Sequence record: LC768462.1
Length of the DNA: 64,000 nucleotides
Origin: Escherichia phage phiEc_1
Strand: one strand, 5' to 3'
Shown: positions 23,023-49,783 of the stretch, piece by piece
How positions within the stretch are numbered: position 1 is the first letter of the stretch
How the letters are laid out: each line of letters opens with the position of its first letter
Position numbers and translations under genes: made by a program
The notes under the pieces: model-generated
The model's input: the letters and a program-made list of their open reading frames with translations, nothing else
What the model was told of the DNA's origin: nothing
The model's database searches: none

Positions 23023-23095
23023 GCGCTCTTAGCTCAATGGATAGAGCAGTAGCCTTCTAAGCTATTGGTTACAGGTTCGAGTCCTGTAGGGCGCA
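23023..23095 (+). tRNA. tRNA-Arg (anticodon UCU); CCA encoded at 23096-23098
   Basis: hand-folded cloverleaf: 7-bp acceptor stem, D-arm, anticodon loop CU-UCU-AA, T-arm ACAGG-TTCGAGT-CCTGT. Confidence 0.9.
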
Positions 23096-23117
23096 CCAAA
23101 TCTAATAGGAGGTAATT

Positions 23118-27238: not shown

Positions 27239-28438
27239 ATGTTTCCAGTAACATTAGAAGATACTGAAGGTAATGTTTTAACAGTCAACCCTCCTTGTTA
27301 TGGGTTCCTTCAGCTTCGCAACTATAACGGTGGCGTTGATGAAGACGATGAAGAGTATGATGACTACTTCGACCCTAACATGTATGAGGCAACTCATGGA
27401 TGGAATATGCACGTTCGAGTGTGGCATGAAGAAGCTAACGTTCGTAGTGCTGATGGGGAAGAGTTCCTGTTAAGCCGAGAGATGGATATGTGTAAAATCA
27501 AGCATATCTGGAACTCTGGAACTCATATGAAGATGTTAGGTTTTAGACGTTGGCGTGATGAAAAGCATGTAGCTGAAGCTTTAAGTTGGTGTTCGTATGA
27601 AGATGAAGACACGCCCCCTAAGAACAACATCGAACGTTGGAACGACAAAAACCCTGAGCATCGAACCACACCTCGTGCTGTACTGGAAGCTATGGAAGCA
27701 TTTGTGGACAAAGATCGTCCCTCCTGTTTACGCTGGCACGATAAAGGTTTTATGGGGGTAGCAACTGAGAATATCCCTGCTGATCGTTGTCTGTTCTATT
27801 TGATGTTAGACCGAATCTTCTATTGTGAAGATGAAGAGAGTCAAGTTGAAACCTTCCTCCATAAATGGTTGGTTGAAGGCTGGACAATCCTTCAGGCTTA
27901 TGTTTACTCACGAATGGTTAGCACTTACACTAACCTCTTAGGGGAAACGAAAGCAACTCTGGTTGGTAATGATTGGGATGCTTGTATCTTCCCAGCGTCG
28001 CTGTTTACAGTTGGCATGGCTAATAAATACGCTGAAGCATTTCAAGTGCCTTGGCGTCAACAGTCATATAGAGATGGATGCGGTCATTTCCGTGATGAAG
28101 ACTTTAAGTGGATTCATTACGAGAATGATGAAACAGCAGAATTACGAGTTAACAACTCAATGTTCTTGCCAGTGATGCACCCCGATCTAGTAAAAGACGG
28201 GTCAGAGACACTTAAAGGTGATAATCTTTTGGTTAACTTTACCCGTCGCGTGTCTAAAAATGAGAAAACAGCTAACAGGTTAATCTACGGCATTCGTGCC
28301 GAGGCTAAAGACCTGTTCAACATCTACAACATCATTCAGCGATTTAGTAGTGGAACTCTGGACCAAAGTTCGGAGTATTCAGTGATTCCGTCCTCTGAGT
28401 GGGATGGTATTATGAGCGGATTATTTTTAGGAAAATAA
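27239..28438 (+). CDS. hypothetical protein, first gene of ligase/amidotransferase cluster
   Basis: 399 aa, acidic, no recognisable motif. Confidence 0.6.
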   Translation: MFPVTLEDTEGNVLTVNPPCYGFLQLRNYNGGVDEDDEEYDDYFDPNMYEATHGWNMHVRVWHEEANVRSADGEEFLLSREMDMCKIKHIWNSGTHMKMLGFRRWRDEKHVAEALSWCSYEDEDTPPKNNIERWNDKNPEHRTTPRAVLEAMEAFVDKDRPSCLRWHDKGFMGVATENIPADRCLFYLMLDRIFYCEDEESQVETFLHKWLVEGWTILQAYVYSRMVSTYTNLLGETKATLVGNDWDACIFPASLFTVGMANKYAEAFQVPWRQQSYRDGCGHFRDEDFKWIHYENDETAELRVNNSMFLPVMHPDLVKDGSETLKGDNLLVNFTRRVSKNEKTANRLIYGIRAEAKDLFNIYNIIQRFSSGTLDQSSEYSVIPSSEWDGIMSGLFLGK

Positions 28439-28448
28439 AAGGTTAGTT

Positions 28449-38827: not shown

Positions 38828-39378
38828 AGAAAAAGAAGAAAGTGTTTGCATTCGATATCGAGAGTAATGCACTATACGATGACATAACTAAAGTATGGTG
38901 TATTTATATCTTTGATGTTGAAACTGGTGAAAGGTGGGGCTATCGGCCTCACCAAATTGAAGACGGGATTCGTAAACTTACAGAAGCAGATGTACTAGTG
39001 GGTCATAATATTATTGACTTCGACTTACCTGCTCTGAAAAAGATGTATCCTTCTTTGATTAAATATAATTTTAACGTCTTTGACACTTTATGTCTTAGTC
39101 GATATCTTAAACCTGATCGTATTGGTGACAGTCCTGAGTATCCGAAAGGCGACCCTAGACGTGGCCCAAGAGGTCACGGCTTGAAGCAATGGGGTGAGTT
39201 CTTAGGGGAACTTAAAGGTGACTACGGTGAGCAAGAGGAAGCATGGGATGCTTTCACTGAAGATATGTTTACTTATTGTGAACAGGACGTTAACTTAACT
39301 GTTAAGGTTTATCTTTTCTTGTGTGAACTCACGGGATTTGACCCTTACGACCCACCTTCATTATATTGGAAAATGTAA
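38821..39378 (+). CDS. DNA polymerase 3'-5' exonuclease domain, separate polypeptide
   Basis: [27 protein letters not shown] match T7 DNA pol exo motifs; GTG start overlaps primase stop. Confidence 0.8.
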
Positions 39379-39379
39379 A

Positions 39380-40693
39380 ATGATTGTTATCCCGATTAAC
39401 CGAATTGAAGATAAGGTTGCTCAACAACCCGATATTACTGTTGGTCGTCACTTCATTGAACAATTAATTGACAACAACTTGATTCCAGACGGTATTTGTC
39501 CTATCATTACTGGTGGGGCTATTCGTGATGCTGTGCTTAATAATATAGCCCCACATGACATTGATATCTTTATTGTCAGAGGACAAACACCAAGAACTCA
39601 AAATACTTTCGTCCCAACTGAGCGATGGCAAATGCTTGGACGGGAGATTGAAAGTAACGTGAAGGAATGGCTTGAGTCACAAGATATTGAGTATTCATCT
39701 CTTCTTGCTGAGGCTACAAACGAGTCCTATGCTGGGAGTTCTCAATTAACATTCACTGATATTATTGAATTTCAGTGGAATGGAACCCGCATTCAATTCA
39801 TGTTTAACTATCCTACTTCTATTGAAGAGGTGTTGGATAATTTCCCTATGATGTGCCGTGGTGCGATGACTATTGATAACTTGTTCATGACCAACCATGG
39901 GTATTTGGCTATGACCGCCCCTTGTCCAGTGGTTGTTTCTAGTCGTGAAATCCGATATGTCCACAAGAAGTGGCCCAATTCTCAGGTATTGAGGTTTTCA
40001 TCTCCATCGGTTGCTCATCAATACATGGCCCAAACTCGATATCTTCCCACACCTCAACCAGTTAGCCAACTAGTCAACGAACGAGGTCAGGTTGCTCTTA
40101 TTGAGGATACAACAAGTGCTCAATATTGTGTTAACCGAGACATGAGTCTATTCTTTGGAATCCCTTATGAAGAGATTCTGTTAATGTCAAGCGTTCACGG
40201 GTCTGGTCAGATTCGTGCGTATTGGTCTGAAGGGTTAACAAACCTAACGACTAACACGGGTGGTGATCTGCTTGGTCGAGAAGAGGAGCCTAACCGACAC
40301 AATGCAATTGAAGGGGTGTTTGTAGCCCCTGCAATGCGTCGAGCACAAGAGTCACGAAGAGTAAGCCCTACTCGTAGAACATCTTTTGAAGAAGCTCTTG
40401 GTATCACAAGTGATTCTATGGAGAGATGGATGGCTAGTCCTTCTCGTGGTCGACCAAACGGCTTAACTATTAGCGCACGTCAGTTCTCTGGTCAGGGTTT
40501 TGCTGTTGGTGATATCAACGCCCCTTCTCGTGTTATCTGGACTGATGAAGGTATGGAACAAGATTTAGGAGATAGTCTCGCTGATCGCTTTATTGCTAAC
40601 AACCCTGAAGTATTAGAACCTCAAACCCGTACAGTTCGGTTTGCCGATGAAGCGGGTCGTGGAATCTCTTTTGACATGGAAACAAATAACTAA
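39380..40693 (+). CDS. nucleotidyltransferase (CCA-adding/poly(A) polymerase-like head domain)
   Basis: ITGGAIRDAVLN....HDIDIF matches GGxxRD...DxD; C-terminal 300 aa unrecognised. Confidence 0.45.
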   Translation: MIVIPINRIEDKVAQQPDITVGRHFIEQLIDNNLIPDGICPIITGGAIRDAVLNNIAPHDIDIFIVRGQTPRTQNTFVPTERWQMLGREIESNVKEWLESQDIEYSSLLAEATNESYAGSSQLTFTDIIEFQWNGTRIQFMFNYPTSIEEVLDNFPMMCRGAMTIDNLFMTNHGYLAMTAPCPVVVSSREIRYVHKKWPNSQVLRFSSPSVAHQYMAQTRYLPTPQPVSQLVNERGQVALIEDTTSAQYCVNRDMSLFFGIPYEEILLMSSVHGSGQIRAYWSEGLTNLTTNTGGDLLGREEEPNRHNAIEGVFVAPAMRRAQESRRVSPTRRTSFEEALGITSDSMERWMASPSRGRPNGLTISARQFSGQGFAVGDINAPSRVIWTDEGMEQDLGDSLADRFIANNPEVLEPQTRTVRFADEAGRGISFDMETNN

Positions 40694-40702
40694 GGAATAA
40701 GA

Positions 40703-41236
40703 ATGAGTTTACTAGGAAGTATTGAACTGCATGATGTAATTGACAATGGCTATCTGGATGCGGAGCATAAGTATGTTAACGCTGCTAGTGTGGATATCCG
40801 TATTGGTGATACTATCCTTGTTGAAGAACAGGCTGATGGCATCGTTGATATTGATGCGAAAGAGAATCTTCAGTGGAAGGAAGTAAAGATTCCTGAAGAG
40901 GGTTTGGTTATCACTCCGGGTCAGTTCTTCTTGGCTCACTCTATGGAGGAGTTTAATCTTCCAGATAACATCTCAAGTCTGTTTGTTCTGCGTTCGTCTA
41001 TGGCTCGTTGTGGTTTGAACCACCTTCACGCCGGTTGGGCAGATGCAGGATTTAATAGTAGTAAGCTGACATTTGAATTCCATAACGTAACCAAGCACCA
41101 CAGCTTACGAGTTCGTGCTGGTATGCGTGTTGGTCAGATGGTTATGTTTGAGCACTCTCATGCAGGGGAACATTCCTACGCAGTGAAGGGTCGTTATAAT
41201 AACTCTGAAGGTGTGGTTGCATCTAAAGGTGTGTAA
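40703..41236 (+). CDS. dCTP deaminase/dUTPase-family protein
   Basis: dUTPase-superfamily motifs (VDIRIGD..., RSSMARCGL). Confidence 0.6.
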   Translation: MSLLGSIELHDVIDNGYLDAEHKYVNAASVDIRIGDTILVEEQADGIVDIDAKENLQWKEVKIPEEGLVITPGQFFLAHSMEEFNLPDNISSLFVLRSSMARCGLNHLHAGWADAGFNSSKLTFEFHNVTKHHSLRVRAGMRVGQMVMFEHSHAGEHSYAVKGRYNNSEGVVASKGV

Positions 41237-41434
41237 ATGAAAAAGTGGATTGTTCGTGTACATGATAACACGACTGGAGAGTTAGTAGCTGTAGATTTTG
41301 TTAAGACTCGAGAACACGCACGTAGGGTCAAAAATCAATACAAGTCTACTTTTAGACTTAACAAGGTTACAATTGGAAAAGCTATTGTGAATAGCGAAGG
41401 TGCTTTTTTTGCCAACAGTAAGGTTTATTATTAA
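41237..41434 (+). CDS. small protein, tandem paralog 1 of 3
   Basis: 65 aa ending KVYY. Confidence 0.5.
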   Translation: MKKWIVRVHDNTTGELVAVDFVKTREHARRVKNQYKSTFRLNKVTIGKAIVNSEGAFFANSKVYY

Positions 41435-41643
41435 TGAGACCGATCACCATGAGACAATTTTGGTTAGCAAAGATTAAGTGGGCATCAGGTGGCATGACTA
41501 TGACTGCACTACCCACTCGCCAACAAGCTCGAGATTTTAAAAAGACTATGCTTACTGGTGACGTGGTTAATAGTATCAGTATCCATAAGGCCAAGGAGTA
41601 TTCTTCTGGTCGTGTTTATATCAGCGGAAAGGTACATTACTAA
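41434..41643 (+). CDS. small protein, tandem paralog 2 of 3
   Basis: 69 aa ending KVHY. Confidence 0.5.
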   Translation: MRPITMRQFWLAKIKWASGGMTMTALPTRQQARDFKKTMLTGDVVNSISIHKAKEYSSGRVYISGKVHY

Positions 41644-41852
41644 TGAAAAAGATGTGGGCTATTCATGTTGTTTGGGATCTTGAGCAACACATGAGAAAAG
41701 ATAACATCAAATTGTTTGATACTCGCAAAGAGGCTCGTATTGCTAAGAAACAGTTGAAGACTCTGGGCACAATAGTAAAAAGCGCTGACATACATCGCTG
41801 GTATGAAGACCCTAACACTGGTTCTTTTATGTCTAAAGTAATTTACTACTGA
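41643..41852 (+). CDS. small protein, tandem paralog 3 of 3
   Basis: 69 aa ending KVIYY. Confidence 0.5.
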   Translation: MKKMWAIHVVWDLEQHMRKDNIKLFDTRKEARIAKKQLKTLGTIVKSADIHRWYEDPNTGSFMSKVIYY

Positions 41853-41924: not shown

Positions 41925-42254
41925 ATGTTAGATTTGAGTAAAGTGGCCCCGCCCACTGAAGAGATTACAAAATCCAAGGTGATGCAACAGTTTTATCATC
42001 GTGATATGCTTGGTCGCTTTATCAAGAATCGTGATGTTGTTGCTTGGTCTATTGGTAATCAGGGATATCTGTTGAAGGTTCTTCAGGTTACAGGTTCAAC
42101 TGCTAAGCGAGTTAAGGTGTATGACCCTGAAATGGGGCGTTCTAAGTCAGTAGACCCACAGAACTGCATCGTAATTACCCAGCAGGTAATGGATAATATT
42201 GCACGTAACGTTGCTAACTCAGTTGAACTTGATGGAGAAAACCCAAATGCATAA
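41925..42254 (+). CDS. hypothetical protein
   Basis: 109-aa ORF with SD. Confidence 0.55.
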   Translation: MLDLSKVAPPTEEITKSKVMQQFYHRDMLGRFIKNRDVVAWSIGNQGYLLKVLQVTGSTAKRVKVYDPEMGRSKSVDPQNCIVITQQVMDNIARNVANSVELDGENPNA

Positions 42255-42810
42255 GAATGTCTTTGATTTACCTGAGATTGGTCGTGACAGCTATAGCATG
42301 TTAGACCGGTCTGATCTTTCAATCTCTCGCCTTGAAACAATGCAAGGCATGATTAGTGCAAACAGCCTAGAACACATCCTGAGCTGCTTACAAGCTAACA
42401 TGGAACTCTTGCATATCAAAGCTAAAAACTACCACTGGAACGTCTCTGGTGCAGGATTTCAGGGTGTTCATGGTATGTTTGATGAGCTGGAAGATTACGC
42501 ACGACAGGTAGGAGATCATATTGCTGAACGTATGCGTTACCACTGCGTTAAAGTGGACGCTACAGCAGCTAACTATCTTTCTCATGCTTGGTTCTCAGAG
42601 GGTAATGCTGACCTAGATATGGACGGTATGCTCTCTGATATGTGCATGACCTTGATGTGTATTATTGAGAAGATGGATGAGTTTGATGGTGATTTAGCCA
42701 CCTACCCTGTTGATCAGAGTATGCTTCAAGAAATTAATGAAGGTCTTGGCAAGTATTGCTACTTCGTCAAGAGCAACATGTCCCATTCAAGTGGTGACGT
42801 GTCTTACTAA
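42247..42810 (+). CDS. Dps/ferritin-like protein
   Basis: AKNYHWNVSGAGFQGVHGMFDELEDYARQVGDHIAERM matches Dps core. Confidence 0.7.
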   Translation: MHKNVFDLPEIGRDSYSMLDRSDLSISRLETMQGMISANSLEHILSCLQANMELLHIKAKNYHWNVSGAGFQGVHGMFDELEDYARQVGDHIAERMRYHCVKVDATAANYLSHAWFSEGNADLDMDGMLSDMCMTLMCIIEKMDEFDGDLATYPVDQSMLQEINEGLGKYCYFVKSNMSHSSGDVSY

Positions 42811-43059
42811 AACCTCCGCCCTGTCTCCTAACCCGAGGTGGGGCGAACTTATTTATAAGGATATAGATATATGTTATCAGCAATCGTATGGGGTATTTGG
42901 GCTATCTTTATTGGTGGTGGTATTTATTGGGCTTCTGGTAAGCTTATTGAAGAAACCCCTGATAAGAAAGGTGAGATTCAAACAGCATCAACTATCATGG
43001 TTATCGTAGCTGTTGTTATCCCATTCCTGCTTCACCTCCTGACTGCATAAGGATTTGAT

Positions 43060-43245
43060 ATGATTTCACTGATTGTGTGGGCCGTGTGGTCGTTAATAGT
43101 TGGTACTGTTATATATAAAGCTCGAAATTTAGCAATTAAAGAAAACCCAGCAGAAGAGGATGTTAAAGCTATCAAGCTAGGTAGTGTTGTTCTGGTACAT
43201 TTTGCTATAACACTACCTCTTGTTATTATTCTTTGTATGCTATAA
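43060..43245 (+). CDS. small membrane protein (paralog of unlisted ORF ~42871-43050)
   Basis: two hydrophobic helices; shared IVW..W....G..IY motif. Confidence 0.45.
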   Translation: MISLIVWAVWSLIVGTVIYKARNLAIKENPAEEDVKAIKLGSVVLVHFAITLPLVIILCML

Positions 43246-43435: not shown

Positions 43436-43711
43436 ATGAGTAAAGTAATTAAGTTTTATAGTGATCAGTGTGCTCCATGTAAAGCAATGGCTCCTACCTT
43501 TGAGAAGGTTGTTAAGGAGTTTGATGTAGAAGTGGAAGAGATTAACATCCTTGAAGGTGATGGTCGTGAGCAAGCTGTTAAGTATGGTGTACGAAGTATC
43601 CCTGCTTTCGTTGTGCCTGACCGTAACAGTGGTGCACACTATAGCCTCTCTGGTATGCAGACTGAAGCAAACCTGAAAGCATTTTTGGACACAGCCCTGA
43701 GCAATAAGTAA
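43436..43711 (+). CDS. thioredoxin/glutaredoxin-like protein
   Basis: CAPC active site, RSIPAFVV. Confidence 0.65.
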   Translation: MSKVIKFYSDQCAPCKAMAPTFEKVVKEFDVEVEEINILEGDGREQAVKYGVRSIPAFVVPDRNSGAHYSLSGMQTEANLKAFLDTALSNK

Positions 43712-43726
43712 TAAGGATATTCACGG

Positions 43727-44383
43727 ATGAATGAACAACTACAAGCAACATTAATCGAAGCTATGGGAAGTGATCGTAGCGTAGTAAACGCAGCTCGAGT
43801 TTCCTTTGGCGTAACCCGTGAAGGTGATTTAAATGAACGTGATGAACGTCTCATCAACTTCCTCGCAAGAGAGAAGCATGTTACCCCATTCCGACACCCG
43901 CAAGTCAGTTTCCGATGCAAAGCACCTATTGCAATTGCGAGACAGTTGGGCAAGCATCAGGTTGGATTCTCGTGGAACGAAATGTCCCGGCGGTATAAAG
44001 ATGGAGCAGTTGAAGTCTTCATCCCTAAAGAGATTTTTGCGAGACCTTCGGACCTCCATGCAGGTTCAGGGATTCAACTCATCGACGGAGAGCGAGCTGA
44101 AGCATTAATGCTGATTAACGATGCATATGAAGCTTCTCTAGCAGCATATGACAAGTTGATTGAATTTATTGCACCAGAGCAAGCTCGATTTGTTCTTCCT
44201 CAGGGGATGATCACTGAGTGGGTGTGGACCGGTTCTTTGTATGGCTGGTTTGAGTTGTGTCGTCAGCGACTCTCCTCTCACGCTCAATATGAAGTTCGAG
44301 TGTTTGCTAAATCTGTAGACGAAGAGATAGCTAAGATCTACCCAATCTCGTGGGCAGCTCTGAAGAAAACATTGGAGATTTAA
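43727..44383 (+). CDS. thyX: flavin-dependent thymidylate synthase ThyX homolog (variant RHR motif)
   Basis: aligns with ThyX; canonical RHR reads KHQ (43952-43960), SxRY conserved. Confidence 0.75.
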   Translation: MNEQLQATLIEAMGSDRSVVNAARVSFGVTREGDLNERDERLINFLAREKHVTPFRHPQVSFRCKAPIAIARQLGKHQVGFSWNEMSRRYKDGAVEVFIPKEIFARPSDLHAGSGIQLIDGERAEALMLINDAYEASLAAYDKLIEFIAPEQARFVLPQGMITEWVWTGSLYGWFELCRQRLSSHAQYEVRVFAKSVDEEIAKIYPISWAALKKTLEI

Positions 44384-44529
44384 TATTGGAAGAAGATGAC
44401 GACGTGTTCTGTACCAAGTGCGGAATGACAGTGGATGATGCATATGACCCAAGTGTAGAAATTTGTCCATGTTGCGGGGTATGTGAGTATTGCTGTTCTC
44501 ATAATCCAGAGGATTAGCAGGAATTTCTG

Positions 44530-44763
44530 ATGAAAATCAAACATATTACAGATATTCAGGAGGCATTTAGGATGCTTCCTCGAAGAGAGAAGGATAAGAT
44601 TAAAAAGCTTATTCAAGTTTATGGTCATACATCTAAAGATGATGTAGACTATATGCCTTCTACTTTCGTAGAGTGTGGGATTGCTCGCGGTTTCACATTC
44701 GACCATAAAGTGTTTCAGCAATTCGTTGACCACTGGAGAAAAGATGGAAAAGAAAATCTGTAG
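44530..44763 (+). CDS. hypothetical protein
   Basis: 77-aa ORF. Confidence 0.5.
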   Translation: MKIKHITDIQEAFRMLPRREKDKIKKLIQVYGHTSKDDVDYMPSTFVECGIARGFTFDHKVFQQFVDHWRKDGKENL

Positions 44764-44929
44764 CTTCTGTAAGAAAGAGAAACCTATCGCCAACTTCAAA
44801 CCTAACCCTGTAACCGGTCTGACCCATGTCATGTGCCACTCTTGCAGGATATATCTTGAAACAAAGCACACTATCAATAGGTTGCACTATTATCACCCAA
44901 CAACATTCAAATTTAAGGTTGTGAAATGA
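44744..44929 (+). CDS. small zinc-ribbon-like protein
   Basis: CSFC...CHSC. Confidence 0.45.
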   Translation: MEKKICSFCKKEKPIANFKPNPVTGLTHVMCHSCRIYLETKHTINRLHYYHPTTFKFKVVK

Positions 44930-45249
44930 TTGACAGTAATACATTTAGGACTTCAAATGGAAGTGAAATAAGTCCCGCTGAAGTAATCAATCGGCATAGA
45001 AGGCAATTGATCATCCATTCCTATTTGTATTACTGGTTGGATGACCCTATCTGGTCTGATGATAAATGGCAACAAGTTGCTAATGATCTAGTGGAGCTGC
45101 AAGCTCTGTATCCAGAACCTACTGGAGTCTTTGACAACGAGTTTAAAGATTGGGATGGTTCTACAGGTATGCATCTCCCACATAACGAAGCTGTTGCTTG
45201 TATGGCGACAGCTGTTTACAGACTTCATAAAGAGGTTAACGTCGCATGA
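44926..45249 (+). CDS. hypothetical protein
   Basis: 107-aa ORF. Confidence 0.5.
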   Translation: MIDSNTFRTSNGSEISPAEVINRHRRQLIIHSYLYYWLDDPIWSDDKWQQVANDLVELQALYPEPTGVFDNEFKDWDGSTGMHLPHNEAVACMATAVYRLHKEVNVA

Positions 45250-45446
45250 GCGTAGTTTATGTTCTAGAAAGATACGCTGAAGATCACAACAGTATTGTTG
45301 CCATATTTAAATATGCCCCGGATGTTGAGGACATTTTGAATGTGACTCACTTAACTGATGTTGATAAAATCAAAGACCTCATCAGGAATGACAATGCCCA
45401 CATAGGTGACTCTCTGTGGTCTCTTACTGAATGGACATTGTGGTGA
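45246..45446 (+). CDS. hypothetical protein
   Basis: 66-aa ORF. Confidence 0.45.
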   Translation: MSVVYVLERYAEDHNSIVAIFKYAPDVEDILNVTHLTDVDKIKDLIRNDNAHIGDSLWSLTEWTLW

Positions 45447-45628
45447 AGTGCTCTAAATGTGAAGGAACAAACCTTCACTTAAGTAACAAGGTTATCAGAG
45501 AGCTTGCCAAAGGCTCTCCAACCAAAGGGAAGAACAAACGATTTACTAACGTCAGGGTTTATACAGCAATCTGTAAAGACTGCTTAACTACTGAATGTCA
45601 TTACGAAGAAATTGGAGAGCGTAAATGA
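45431..45628 (+). CDS. small zinc-ribbon-like protein
   Basis: CSKC...CKDC. Confidence 0.45.
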   Translation: MDIVVKCSKCEGTNLHLSNKVIRELAKGSPTKGKNKRFTNVRVYTAICKDCLTTECHYEEIGERK

Positions 45629-46362
45629 GTCGTCGTCAATCACGGAAAGAATCACGGAAAGACCTTCGTCGAGAAGCACTTGTTACTCGTAAGGGTAAGC
45701 GAGAGTATGAAGAGGTGGTTTTAGCAAAGCCTGTAGTCCCTCAGAACCAGTTTCAGTCTGAGCTACTTAATGCTATCAAGACTAAACAAGTTGTGTTCAC
45801 AGACGCTCCTGCGGGCTGTGGTAAGACCTTTGTAATCACTTCCACGGTTATTGATGCACTGAAGAGTGGTAAGATTCAGAAGATCATCTTGAGTCGACCT
45901 TCAGTTGGCATGGGTAACTCTCTTGGGTTACTTCCGGGAGGGATGCGTGAGAAGTTTGAACCGTACCTTATGCCTATTATTGATGTTATTACTCAGCGAT
46001 ATGGTAAGGGGTTCTATGAATGCCAAATCGGAAATGGTAATATTGAATTTGTACCTCTGGAATATCTCCGTGGTCGTTCCTTCAATGATGCCATTGTTAT
46101 CGTGGATGAGTTCCAGAACACCACTAAAGAGGAAGCCTTCTCCATCATGACTCGATTGGGAGAAACCTCTCAGCTGTTCTGCATGGGTGATACAAACCAG
46201 CATGATATGCGTGGTCGTGAGAGTGGCCTCACTTGGGCTACTAACTTTATTGATGAACACGATCTGTATGAGTTTGCTGAGATTGTAGACGGTGAATCGG
46301 ATGATATTGTTCGTTCTGGTTTCTGTAAGGCGATTGTTAAAGCAATGGAAAAGAAAGCTTAA
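45625..46362 (+). CDS. phoH: PhoH-like ATPase
   Basis: Walker A APAGCGKTF, EYLRGRSF, VDEFQN. Confidence 0.8.
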   Translation: MSRRQSRKESRKDLRREALVTRKGKREYEEVVLAKPVVPQNQFQSELLNAIKTKQVVFTDAPAGCGKTFVITSTVIDALKSGKIQKIILSRPSVGMGNSLGLLPGGMREKFEPYLMPIIDVITQRYGKGFYECQIGNGNIEFVPLEYLRGRSFNDAIVIVDEFQNTTKEEAFSIMTRLGETSQLFCMGDTNQHDMRGRESGLTWATNFIDEHDLYEFAEIVDGESDDIVRSGFCKAIVKAMEKKA

Positions 46363-46373
46363 ACAGTAACTTA

Positions 46374-46382
46374 TAATGTATA
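46374..46382 (+). promoter_or_regulatory. TAATGTATA motif (candidate phage-specific promoter element)
   Basis: 37 nt upstream of ATG 46419. Confidence 0.45.
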
Positions 46383-46418
46383 CTCCTTAGTGTACACTGA
46401 TATATTAAGGAGTTCTAA

Positions 46419-46736
46419 ATGGCAGACCATGTAGGAAAGAGAGATTATGCACAAGAAAGACGTACCGCAATTGCCCGTGGTGAGACAGGCGTTGGGAGCA
46501 AGAGCGGAGATGCTCAGCGCCACCGTGCACGTCGCATCGTTGAAAAGCGCGATGGAAAAGCTGCTGTCAGAGGTAAAGATGTTGGACACAAACGAGCTGT
46601 CAAGTCTGGAGGCTCTAATGCGTCAAGCAACTTACGTGTTGAACCAGTCAGCTCAAACCGTTCAAACGGCGGCAAAAGTGGTGATCGCGCTGGAAAAGCA
46701 GCTGGAGCACGCAAAGGAGCTTTAAGCTCATCGTAA
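46419..46736 (+). CDS. basic low-complexity protein
   Basis: TAAGGAG SD; K/R/G/A-rich 105 aa; G-rich first codon position supports this frame. Confidence 0.5.
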   Translation: MADHVGKRDYAQERRTAIARGETGVGSKSGDAQRHRARRIVEKRDGKAAVRGKDVGHKRAVKSGGSNASSNLRVEPVSSNRSNGGKSGDRAGKAAGARKGALSSS

Positions 46737-46740
46737 TATG

Positions 46741-46770
46741 AGGCTGCCCACTTGGGTGGCCTTTTCTTTT
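46741..46770 (+). terminator. intrinsic terminator
   Basis: AGGCUGCCC..GGGUGGCCU hairpin + U-run. Confidence 0.6.
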
Positions 46771-46804
46771 ATATAAACCAAACTAAACTTCCTAGGTAAT
46801 AAAT

Positions 46805-47059
46805 ATGTCTATTGTAAAAATCGTAAATATCATTGATGTAACTCGTACCGGTAAAACTATCAGTTGGAAATTCACCAATAAGCATAGAGGTTCAGAGAAC
46901 ATCATTCGTTCTATGATTCAACAAAACCCAAATACAGCTCGCACTAACGTACTCCTTCGCGGAGCTGATGGAAAATTTATCTCTTATAAGAATAAGAACG
47001 TAGAAAAATCTTTCCGTGTTGCAGTAGAAAATCTCATCCCATTCACTAAAGGAGTTTAA
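46805..47059 (+). CDS. small protein, tandem paralog 1 of 2
   Basis: shares TART.V.LR...GKFISY...PF.KG with next ORF. Confidence 0.5.
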   Translation: MSIVKIVNIIDVTRTGKTISWKFTNKHRGSENIIRSMIQQNPNTARTNVLLRGADGKFISYKNKNVEKSFRVAVENLIPFTKGV

Positions 47060-47060
47060 T

Positions 47061-47345
47061 ATGAATAAGTTAGCTATGGTACAGATTCGAGATACATACC
47101 CCAACCGCCCGGAGCAGAAACCTCGTACTTGGTCCTATCTGCTAGTAGGGAGTAAGACTATTAATTCATGCTCTGTAGGAATTGATACTATCCCAACCAG
47201 TATCACTTTGCTTCCTCACAAAACAGCCAGAACCCATGTGATGTTACGTGACAGCAAAGGTAAGTTTATCTCTTATCGTGATTCACGAATTAATAACGAG
47301 ATTAAATCTGCTATGGAATTTTTGATGCCATTCCCAAAAGGTTAA
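47061..47345 (+). CDS. small protein, tandem paralog 2 of 2
   Basis: paralog motif. Confidence 0.5.
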   Translation: MNKLAMVQIRDTYPNRPEQKPRTWSYLLVGSKTINSCSVGIDTIPTSITLLPHKTARTHVMLRDSKGKFISYRDSRINNEIKSAMEFLMPFPKG

Positions 47346-47508
47346 ATAATGAAAGAATATGTTTACGTAGGACAGCGCTGGTTCGGTGACGAATGGGAAG
47401 GTGGGTACAATGTTGTGAAAGCTTTTAAGTCTGAAGAAGATGCCAAGGCATGGGTCTTAAAAGATGACGTTGGCGAGAGAACTTACATTGAAGTAGAGGT
47501 GGAGTAGA

Positions 47509-47922
47509 ATGCCATTACCAGCTAGACACCAAAACCGTTTCCTAGTTCTCAAGTGGGATGATATTGAAATGAATCTCACTGAACATGAACTGGACTTGTT
47601 TCATGAATTATTATCAGAAATTCGCTCTGGTATTCCTGAACGTCAGTATGTGGTTATAAGCGATAAGCACCCTCAAGAGTTTGAAGAAGCTTGGGGTATG
47701 AAACTGGCTTACATCCAAAGAGCTATTCGAGAAAGAGAAGAAGTTGCTAATCAAAGAGTTGTGGCTCATCTAGTCAGAGAACAGCCTCGTGAAGTTAGGT
47801 CTTCTTATTCTCCATCTACTTGGGCACAAACAAATGCAGCAATGAGAACATACGCTGTTGATTCCACATCCTTGGATGTAGTAGAAGATAACCAAGCATT
47901 TACAGATTTACTTTACCAATAA
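47509..47922 (+). CDS. hypothetical protein
   Basis: 137-aa ORF. Confidence 0.55.
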   Translation: MPLPARHQNRFLVLKWDDIEMNLTEHELDLFHELLSEIRSGIPERQYVVISDKHPQEFEEAWGMKLAYIQRAIREREEVANQRVVAHLVREQPREVRSSYSPSTWAQTNAAMRTYAVDSTSLDVVEDNQAFTDLLYQ

Positions 47923-47938
47923 TTTAAAGGAGTATAAA

Positions 47939-49783
47939 GTGAGCAACCCGGACGCTCTTCCATTTTTGACAGAGATGACTGTCGCTGATATAATCTCTAA
48001 GCAAGCAAAGCACGGAGTGAGTTTCAACCGAAGAAATGCTCGGTGGTATGTTCACCTCCTTAAAGAGATTATTGTTAATATTGACAGAGAGTTGATTCCT
48101 CTCTTACCTAAGATGAGATTAGATGGCTCTACTTACATGAAGCCGTTTAAGAAGTCTGGAGCTTTACAGAAGTGGCCTCAAGCCTATTGTGATAGGGTTG
48201 GGCTGAAGAGAGAAGACATTGGTGGAGCTTTCACCTGTGTCGAATACGTAGACTTTGACCCATCGAAAGATGCACGAGTTAAAGAAGCTCTTATGGATGA
48301 GGGCTTTCTTCCTCCAGAGTTTAACGTATCTAAGAAGCCTTGGAATACTTTCGAAATTAAGAAAGATATGAGAAAGTATGGAACATACCAAGCATGGTAT
48401 ACTGCTTGGATGCGAGGAAATGCTAAGCAGAAGCAGACAGCCGAGATGGTTGACGCTGATATTAAGAAGTTCTTAGAAAAGCATTTTAGGTTTAAAACTA
48501 AGAACTATATGAAGGCTTACGTATTTGGTTTGGGATTAAACCCGAATCGTCGTAATCCTGTAACGTTTGATGAGATTAAGAAAGCGCTAGCCACATCAAA
48601 CAAGTGGCCTACAGCTCCTACAAACCTCGAGGAGACTCTTGAAGAAGGGTTAGGGGGTGAGCTAGGGAGTGTCGGAAGTTTGCTTAAGAGACGCGTTGTA
48701 GCGGCTCACAGGCTAGGTCTTATCAGTGGACTTATAGCAAAGGAACGCGAAGATGGTAAACTTTCGGCAGAAGCTAACAGCTGCGCTACGCCGACTTTTC
48801 GATTCAAACATCGTATCGTTGTTAATATTCCCTCCCGTGGTTTGTTTGGTCATGAGTGTCGCAGTTTGTTTGAGTCTGACTATAACTCAGACAGTGATCA
48901 TTCTCGTCCTTTCGTTATTACTAACGTTGTTCCTGATGGTTGTTATATACGAAAAGGTACTAACGTAATTTACGAGAAAGGTAAGCCGGGGAAGAAAGAC
49001 AAACCTGTAGGTGCTTACAAATATTACATACCCGCTGGTAAAGAAGTATTCTTAGGGTATGATGGTTCTGGACTTGAACTTCGTATGCTCGCTCACTACC
49101 TCATTAAAGAGTGTAGGGATATGCTTGCTGAGGCTATCGAAGAGAACAACCCAGCTAAGAAAGCTCTGGCAGAACGTGGTTTAGCTTCTGCTATTATGTA
49201 TCGTGATATTCTCCTTGAAGGTGATATCCACTCCCACAACCAGAAACTTGCTGGTCTTCCTACTCGTGACAACGCTAAAACGTTTATCTATGCATTCAAC
49301 TACGGTGCTGGCGATGCTAAGCTTGGTTCAATTGTAGGTGGTGGGGCTGACGAAGGTTCAGTGATGCGAGCACGTTTCTTAGCAGAGAACCCATGTATTG
49401 CAATCCTCATTGATCGTATGACAGAGAAAGCTGCTCAAGGATACTTGATTGGAGTTGATGGTCGTAAGATTACAATGAGACGGGATGCCACTGGTAAGGT
49501 TATGGTTCATAAAGCCCTTAACACACTCCTGCAATGTGCTGGTGCTGTTGTTATGAAATATGCTATGATGTTCCTTAACAAGTGGATTGAGAAAGATAAG
49601 GTTCGTTGTGCTAAGGTAATTGATATGCACGATGAAGGTCAATTCTCAGTAAACCGTAATGATGTACAGAAACTCAAAGAGCACACCGAGCTTTGTGTTA
49701 AGAAGGCTGGTGAGTATTTGAACATGGAATGCCCTCTGGCTTCTGATTGTCAGATTGGACTTAACTGGATGCACACACACTAA
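47939..49783 (+). CDS. family-A DNA polymerase, polymerase-domain polypeptide
   Basis: motif A DGSGLELRMLAH, motif B RDNAKTFIYAFNYGAG, motif C HDEGQF; N-terminus aligns with T7 DNA pol just after exo domain. Confidence 0.85.
   Translation: MSNPDALPFLTEMTVADIISKQAKHGVSFNRRNARWYVHLLKEIIVNIDRELIPLLPKMRLDGSTYMKPFKKSGALQKWPQAYCDRVGLKREDIGGAFTCVEYVDFDPSKDARVKEALMDEGFLPPEFNVSKKPWNTFEIKKDMRKYGTYQAWYTAWMRGNAKQKQTAEMVDADIKKFLEKHFRFKTKNYMKAYVFGLGLNPNRRNPVTFDEIKKALATSNKWPTAPTNLEETLEEGLGGELGSVGSLLKRRVVAAHRLGLISGLIAKEREDGKLSAEANSCATPTFRFKHRIVVNIPSRGLFGHECRSLFESDYNSDSDHSRPFVITNVVPDGCYIRKGTNVIYEKGKPGKKDKPVGAYKYYIPAGKEVFLGYDGSGLELRMLAHYLIKECRDMLAEAIEENNPAKKALAERGLASAIMYRDILLEGDIHSHNQKLAGLPTRDNAKTFIYAFNYGAGDAKLGSIVGGGADEGSVMRARFLAENPCIAILIDRMTEKAAQGYLIGVDGRKITMRRDATGKVMVHKALNTLLQCAGAVVMKYAMMFLNKWIEKDKVRCAKVIDMHDEGQFSVNRNDVQKLKEHTELCVKKAGEYLNMECPLASDCQIGLNWMHTH

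Follow-up and report, generated by a model that had tools for sequence, protein, structure and literature searches.

What is a nucleotidyltransferase of the kind known from tRNA CCA-adding enzymes and poly(A) polymerases (PAPs) doing among the replication genes of an Escherichia phage? The question is raised by one gene in a stretch of 64,000 nucleotides from Escherichia phage phiEc_1 (sequence record LC768462.1), referred to here as the window (Table 1). The segment 38000-42000, in which the gene lies, matches Escherichia phage MN03 (Kuravirus, Gordonclarkvirinae) at 100% identity and numerous further phages of E. coli and Shigella at 94-97%, and the encoded protein is 100% identical to MN03 gp081, named 'nucleotidyltransferase' in RefSeq. 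An earlier annotation made from the nucleotides and their translations (the sequence-only reading) had seen in it the head-domain signature of class II tRNA nucleotidyltransferases and PAPs, and had proposed that it repairs the 3' ends of tRNAs attacked by host nucleases or adds tails to RNA. We find that the protein is a polymerase-beta-superfamily nucleotidyltransferase. This identification was already known, as the gene is annotated in RefSeq, in PHROGs and in papers from 2014 and 2025. What is added here is that the protein is a derivative of the class II enzymes with the head only and motif A only, that it is sister to a large clade of Autographiviridae proteins, that two aspartates are replaced in a family-specific manner, that a long variable tail follows the head and that the tRNA-repair reading is unsupported.

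Two things define a class II enzyme: motifs A-E and a head-neck-body-tail architecture. Motif A binds the nucleoside triphosphate (NTP) and two metals, and its two carboxylates are the catalytic ones; motif B senses the ribose 2'-OH, and motif D acts as a protein template that selects CTP and ATP. In the phage protein, motif A reads ITGGAIRDAVLNNIAPHDIDIF. Across the family alignment (33 sequences, down to 23% identity), G45, G46, R49, D50, D60 and D62 are invariant. When the pattern GGx[VI]RD followed by DxD was counted, it was present in every one of the 33 family members and in all eight class II controls, which comprised E. coli CCA, PcnB and six CCA- or PAP-type genes from phage collection records. 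The GGxxRD...DxD signature of the class II head, on which the sequence-only reading was built, is thus borne out throughout the family. The kinship was also seen at the level of profiles: hhalign of the family against an alignment of the eight class II enzymes gave E = 6.7e-6, a CCA-adding enzyme of solved structure was matched by the family profile at E = 0.003, the aligned stretch being GGaVRD...DiD, and the Pfam head domain PolyA_pol (PF01743) was matched at E <= 1 in 18 of 26 family members, with a best E of 2.5e-4. Together with the fold search described below, the Pfam and profile results uphold class II tRNA nucleotidyltransferases and poly(A) polymerase I (PAP I) as the closest relatives.

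The fold was predicted with AlphaFold for residues 1-235 from 33 diverse sequences, giving a predicted local distance difference test (pLDDT) value of 88 and a predicted template modelling (pTM) score of 0.83. In a Foldseek search with this model, the top 40 matches were all class II enzymes. The fold matches listed, with their values in brackets, are a bacterial poly(A) polymerase (3aql, 11.3), the B. stearothermophilus CCA enzyme (1miv, 10.1), the tRNA-processing enzyme 4wby (9.9), the T. maritima CCA enzyme (3h37, 9.6), the human CCA enzyme (1ou5, 9.4), the tRNA-processing enzyme 3wfo (8.3) and a plant CCA enzyme (9kma, 8.1). Structure prediction had been named in advance as a possible refuter of the class II assignment; it gives a class II head fold, and not an unrelated one, for the first ~220 residues. 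The accompanying remark that the remaining ~300 residues were unrecognizable holds only in part: residues 1 to ~220 form one recognizable domain, whereas residues 221-437 are without detectable relatives outside the family and were modelled with low confidence.

Beyond motif A, the family departs from the class II pattern. Profile comparison with class II enzymes aligns confidently at motif A only, and residues 120-235 show no profile similarity (E > 0.2) to the class II region that carries motifs B-E. The RRD of motif B occurs in one of the 33 family members and the full motif (RRDxxxN) in none, against all eight controls in both cases; motif D ([ED]DxxRxxR) is found in 0/33 against 8/8, and motif E (ERxxxE) in 1/33 against 7/8. 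Neither the model nor the family alignment shows neck, body or tail domains for holding tRNA, and no RNA-binding or neck domain was found with Pfam. A family-specific helix with the motif [RT][DE]xxYxxKK would occupy the position of motif D, judged by the order of secondary-structure elements alone.

These absences bear directly on the proposal that the protein truly adds CCA to tRNA or repairs it, or is a PAP of known kind, and so restores tRNA 3' ends attacked by host nucleases. Motif A and a head fold of the CCA/PAP type speak for it, some database entries call orthologues 'class II CCA-adding enzyme-like', and the tRNA-Arg on which the proposal had drawn is indeed present in the window, as a single tRNA-Arg(UCU). 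However, this tRNA lies 16 kb from the nucleotidyltransferase gene and has its 3' CCA encoded in its own gene, and the host owns a CCA enzyme. Rfam finds tRNA only, with no other structured RNA as a candidate substrate, and no RNA ligase or Pnkp-type repair gene, that is, no repair partner, is annotated in the carefully annotated relative Bas90. Genuine phage CCA-adding enzymes do exist, in 477 phage records by tblastn with E. coli CCA (E <= 1e-5), but among the 30 records listed they are found mostly in large genomes of ~120-540 kb, and no Kuravirus is among the matches listed. Since there is no tRNA-measuring body or tail, the protein falls outside the canonical tRNA CCA-adding and repair enzymes; with motifs B, D and E missing in 32-33 of the 33 members as well, the repair proposal is not supported, and we consider it very unlikely.

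A closer relationship was found among other phages. After an orthologue, the best viral fold matches are Autographiviridae proteins of 167-230 residues that carry the labels 'PolyA_pol head domain' or 'nucleotidyltransferase'. By hhalign, the Kuravirus family matches this Autographiviridae group with 96.3% probability (E = 1.5e-9) over residues 24-156, including a long WxE helix; LIMEzero gp22 alone matches the Kuravirus family at E = 8.9e-5, and PHROG 1614 matches the Kuravirus protein at E = 2.1e-7. Many members of both groups also carry the precomputed Pfam label PF26128 (PF26128.2). Because of the hhalign match, with its WxE helix, and the common PF26128 label, the sequence comparison places the Kuravirus family and the small Autographiviridae nucleotidyltransferases as homologous sister clades. 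The second clade is large, the relatives of LIMEzero gp22 alone occurring in 207 phage records. It is likewise akin to the class II enzymes (hhalign 97.4%, E = 9e-12), and its motif-B-like FDxNhNQ aligns with RRDFTINA. In seven of eight Autographiviridae genera inspected the gene abuts that for a primase, helicase or DNA polymerase, in several arrangements; in the eighth, Foturvirus, one small open reading frame (ORF) stands between it and the primase gene. A Rosetta-stone search for fusions within this clade found none among 11 proteins.

The merged alignment of the two clades reveals two replacements. Gln139 and Pro156, both invariant in the Kuravirus family, stand at columns that hold aspartates in the Autographiviridae relatives (Table 1), and the only invariant carboxylates of the family are D50, D60 and D62. 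No further invariant carboxylate is evident, so that catalysis could be altered or lost, a point to which we return below.

Downstream of the head, constraint weakens. The ratio of nonsynonymous to synonymous substitution rates (dN/dS) is 0.08-0.12 in the core, a sign of strong purifying selection, and climbs to 0.37-0.45 in the tail, with a weakly conserved helical module between them. The tail, residues 291-437, is missing from family members of 275-320 residues. Its confidence values come from a full-length AlphaFold model based on a shallow, Kuravirus-only alignment (overall pLDDT 45.6), and it is probably disordered. It is translated and constrained, loosely, as expected of a disordered region. 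A C-terminal aromatic 'tether' motif was considered, since the last residue of several family members is W, F or Y, and was dropped because it is not general. Separately, comparison with three orthologues gave a smaller synonymous divergence (dS) for the tail (0.16-0.38) than for the core (0.57-0.73), despite the faster change of the tail at the protein level; this could stem from recombination or from an overlapping nucleotide-level constraint.

The family is rare, phage-only and confined to Gordonclarkvirinae-like genomes. When 1.84 billion representative proteins were searched exhaustively with HMMER, 34 matches were returned, about 30 of them genuine members; three were giant repeat proteins (subtilase, Calx-beta and cadherin) and were rejected as spurious. 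Among cultured phages the gene occurs in 97 records only, all of them E. coli or Shigella Gordonclarkvirinae, whichever family member served as the query, and metagenomes contribute divergent members in phage contigs of 76-90 kb. The gene order of primase-helicase, exonuclease, nucleotidyltransferase and dCTP deaminase is kept in all contexts inspected, down to 25-30% identity; the conserved position of the gene had been noted in the 2025 BASEL paper (PMC11990801). The orthologue of phage SU10 was seen by mass spectrometry among early gene products, with one peptide (PMC4281155).

The start of the gene required attention, as the ORF listing gives 39323-40693, opening with an upstream GTG. The true start is the ATG at 39380, because all 33 family members open with M-I/L-x-I/V-P at this residue, because RefSeq annotates the identical start for MN03 gp081 and because this ATG sits 1 nt past the TAA of the upstream exonuclease gene. 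Inspection of the junction showed no Shine-Dalgarno sequence ahead of the ATG, and within the replication block promoter-like and terminator-like matches were no commoner than in shuffled sequence. The statement of the sequence-only reading that the gene lies between polymerase halves is true in a loose sense, since a PolA-type exonuclease subunit is encoded upstream and the PolA polymerase domain downstream, but ~8.5 kb and some 25 ORFs separate these two.

Table 1. Features of the nucleotidyltransferase gene and its surroundings (positions in the window)
Feature	Position	Strand	Basis or remark
Nucleotidyltransferase ORF, 437 aa + stop	39380..40693	+	Orthologue of MN03 gp081, SU10 CDS74 and Bas90_0070; PHROG 12715 E=3.6e-241
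Conserved catalytic-type core, residues 1-220: class II-like head domain and two following helices	39380..40039	+	
Motif A, residues 43-64	39506..39571	+	Family alignment
Gln139, invariant in family, at column of invariant Asp ('VDhh' strand) of Autographiviridae relatives	39794..39796	+	Merged alignment
Pro156, invariant in family, at motif-B Asp column (FD of Autographiviridae relatives, RRD of class II)	39845..39847	+	Merged alignment
Family-specific helix motif [RT][DE]xxYxxKK (REIRYVHKK)	39944..39970	+	Y193 and K197 invariant
Weakly conserved helical module, residues 241-290, closing in aromatic-S/T-x-G motif (YWSEGL)	40100..40249	+	dN/dS 0.17-0.21
Variable tail rich in R, S, G and E, residues 291-437	40250..40690	+	pLDDT 22-43; indels; dN/dS 0.37-0.45
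Primase-helicase (Toprim + DnaB_C), gene 1 of conserved four-gene block	37037..38827	+	Pfam, synteny
PolA-type 3'-5' exonuclease subunit, upstream neighbour	38821..39378	+	Pfam DNA_pol_A_exo1 E=1.3e-8; PHROG 38876 and 403
dCTP deaminase-like gene, downstream neighbour	40703..41236	+	Pfam DCD E=3.6e-34
PolA polymerase-domain gene	47939..49783	+	Pfam DNA_pol_A E=2.5e-23
tRNA-Arg(UCU), 3' CCA encoded in gene	23023..23098	+	Context for the sequence-only reading

We favour, tentatively and at somewhat less than an even chance, a composite reading in which a class II-type head binds NTP and Mg2+, transfers a nucleotide to the 3'-OH of a nucleic acid and is expressed with the replication genes. Judging from their conservation, the invariant GGxxRD and DxD residues would bind NTP and Mg2+ as they do in class II enzymes. 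The gene arrangement suggests that the protein would be made alongside the replication proteins, its translation probably being coupled to that of the polymerase exonuclease subunit. The most likely reaction would be an untemplated nucleotide transfer to the 3'-OH of an RNA or DNA end. As motif B, which senses the ribose, and motif D, which templates the base, are both missing, the sugar and base specificity should differ from those of CCA-adding enzymes and PAPs, and tRNA would not be measured.

Several observations weigh against this reading. The PolyA_pol match of the protein itself (E = 0.0044, 17.8 bits) is below the gathering cut-off of 23 bits, and the five family members scored singly (17.8-21.9 bits) all fall below it. 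Searches with the single protein gave no match in NCBIfam or PADLOC and only chance matches in a PDB sequence search. The roles of Q139, P156, Y193 and K197 are read from alignments only, and the two aspartate replacements could mean that catalysis is altered or lost. In the literature we found no measured activity for any member of the Kuravirus or Autographiviridae clade, and adjacency to replisome genes may reflect nothing but shared timing of expression.

The same replacements form the basis of another explanation, namely that the protein is a nucleotide-binding pseudoenzyme or a regulatory subunit of the replisome, which has kept the NTP motif, has lost catalysis and tethers partners through a flexible tail. 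The invariant Gln139 and Pro156 in place of aspartates that are invariant in the sister clade, with no third invariant carboxylate, would be explained in this way, as would the start codon so tightly coupled to the exonuclease subunit gene and the long, weakly constrained tail of low model confidence. Nevertheless, GGxxRD and both metal-binding aspartates are invariant over deep divergence, which is unusual for a dead enzyme, and the two carboxylates that are kept are the catalytic ones of class II enzymes. We regard a pseudoenzyme as unlikely, albeit the least unlikely of the rivals to the transferase reading.

The downstream neighbour suggests a different role, in which the nucleotidyltransferase and the dCTP deaminase work together, in a pathway of DNA modification or of the nucleotide pool, to protect the DNA of Gordonclarkvirinae from restriction. 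The 2025 BASEL collection paper raised this idea as speculation; it named the two gene products as candidates and described the Gordonclarkvirinae, for which no modification pathway is known, as showing remarkable resistance to restriction-modification systems (PMC11990801). The strict adjacency of the two genes inside the replication block is in line with the idea, as is this reported resistance, and the loss of motif B would be compatible with the use of deoxynucleoside triphosphates (dNTPs). However, the window also encodes ThyX (43727-44383). The idea is weakened because ThyX makes the dCTP deaminase an ordinary enzyme of dTTP supply; DNA containing deoxyuridine was rejected as the simplest reading for the same reason. 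Furthermore, the literature examined reports no modified base for these phages, and to our knowledge no polymerase-beta-type nucleotidyltransferase modifies DNA bases. A modification pathway of this kind is, in our view, quite unlikely.

A broader proposal, which we would place among the long shots to the same degree, treats the Kuravirus enzyme and its Autographiviridae cousins alike as accessory factors of T7-type replisomes. They might be terminal transferases that act on DNA ends or RNA primers, or might carry out a nucleotide- or DNA-modifying step coupled to the dCTP deaminase that adds to the restriction resistance of Gordonclarkvirinae. An enzyme without the motifs that sense the ribose and template the base would be suited to dNTPs or non-canonical substrates.

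Several other features of the window were recorded. The replication and nucleotide block contains, on the plus strand, a ferritin/Dps-like protein (42199-42810) as well as a phage thioredoxin (ending at 43711), in addition to the ThyX gene on the same strand; being near a T7-type split polymerase, the thioredoxin may be a processivity factor of that polymerase. Directly 3' of the dCTP deaminase gene (41237-41852, plus strand), three head-to-tail ORFs of 65, 69 and 69 residues are mutual paralogues, with local alignment z values of 8.8 and 7.8 for neighbouring pairs; they have the pattern TRxxAR...SKVxYY in common and are annotated as hypothetical proteins. Two further adjacent ORFs of 59 and 61 residues (42871-43245, plus strand) are clear paralogues (z = 16.1) and resemble small membrane proteins, with mainly hydrophobic stretches flanking a charged central segment. 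Upstream of the replication block, at about 27430-36817 on the plus strand, lies a cluster with a COOH-NH2 ligase, an Amidoligase_2 protein, a class II glutamine amidotransferase, a RimK-type ATP-grasp protein and a GGACT gene, the last being gamma-glutamyl cyclotransferase-like; the cluster is kept in a distant relative too and could, as a further candidate, supply these restriction-resistant phages with an unusual metabolite or modification. The window is collinear with MN03 (NC_070990) up to ThyX. Beyond it, over 44383-47939, PhoH lies ~130 nt later and PolA ~181 nt earlier than the MN03 coordinates predict, and window positions below about 18800 would map past the end of the linear MN03 record. 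Because of these offsets and positions, the window represents a permuted or slightly different genome relative to the MN03 RefSeq record.

The gene deserves interest for what surrounds it. Gordonclarkvirinae are common phages of E. coli with a broad host range and are used in therapy studies; they are reported to withstand restriction and most of the defence systems tested, by no known mechanism (PMC11990801). Few enzyme-like candidates are encoded in their replication block, the nucleotidyltransferase among them, and its gene has kept one position across deep divergence. Head-only, class II-like nucleotidyltransferases of this or a related type are encoded next to replisome genes in more than 300 podophage records, 97 from its own family and 207 from the sister clade. 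The substrate of the protein, once found, would reveal the role of a CCA-enzyme catalytic head freed from tRNA and might expose a new step of replication or counter-defence. The finding would be notable only if the protein proves to be a replisome accessory factor or to take part in DNA protection; it would be ordinary if the protein is a mere tailing enzyme or an inactive relic.

Comparison with known systems sets the protein apart from several other nucleotidyltransferases. The MNT-like enzymes of Bacillus phage BCP1 and phage Av05 are likewise small, phage-encoded members of the polymerase-beta superfamily; they belong to a different clade and make competitor cyclic dinucleotides. They provide the precedent, from another nucleotidyltransferase family, for the idea that the Kuravirus protein makes a small nucleotide product, for instance a cyclic or linear oligonucleotide, that disturbs immune signalling in the host. 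Yet their signature, GS-x-AY[GAN]T-x4-SDxD with NPxhh[DE], is absent from the Kuravirus sequence, which reads GGAIRD...HDIDIF; class II RNA-end enzymes are clearly the closest fold, and the gene is located among replication genes and not in an anti-defence island. Defence nucleotidyltransferases (CD-NTases and MenT/AbiEii toxins) are not the closest fold either, and no PADLOC model matched. Of all the roles considered, we hold signalling interference to be the most improbable.

A bacterial stand-alone head domain of a CCA enzyme is known from Streptococcus pneumoniae (NP_344798.1, PDB 2la3); its fold similarity to the Kuravirus protein ranks below that of full-length class II enzymes, and no sequence relationship between the two was detected. 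The genuine phage CCA enzymes, such as Aeromonas phage Aeh1 gp308 and those of Vibrio phage KVP40 and Salmonella phage SSE121, are proteins of 350-470 residues with motifs A-E and 30-55% identity to E. coli CCA, and have only motif A in common with the Kuravirus protein. The class II CCA enzymes and PAP I (3aql, 1miv, 3h37 and 1ou5) have both the head fold and motif A in common with it. In contrast to them, the Kuravirus protein is without motifs B (RRD), D (EDxxR) and E and without neck, body and tail domains; it has a long inserted helix with a WLE motif (residues 80-100), which cellular class II enzymes lack, and adds a variable C-terminal extension of ~150 residues with low model confidence. 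The nearest counterpart is the head-only type of the Autographiviridae, represented by Pseudomonas phage LKD16 ORF16, Pantoea phage LIMEzero gp22 and Aquamicrobium phage P14 gp22, which is the best profile match and, like the Kuravirus protein, is phage-only and encoded near replisome genes. These proteins are 180-230 residues long, have no tail and keep the 'VDhh' aspartate and FDxNhNQ, whereas the Kuravirus family has Gln139, Pro156 and its own [RT][DE]xxYxxKK helix.

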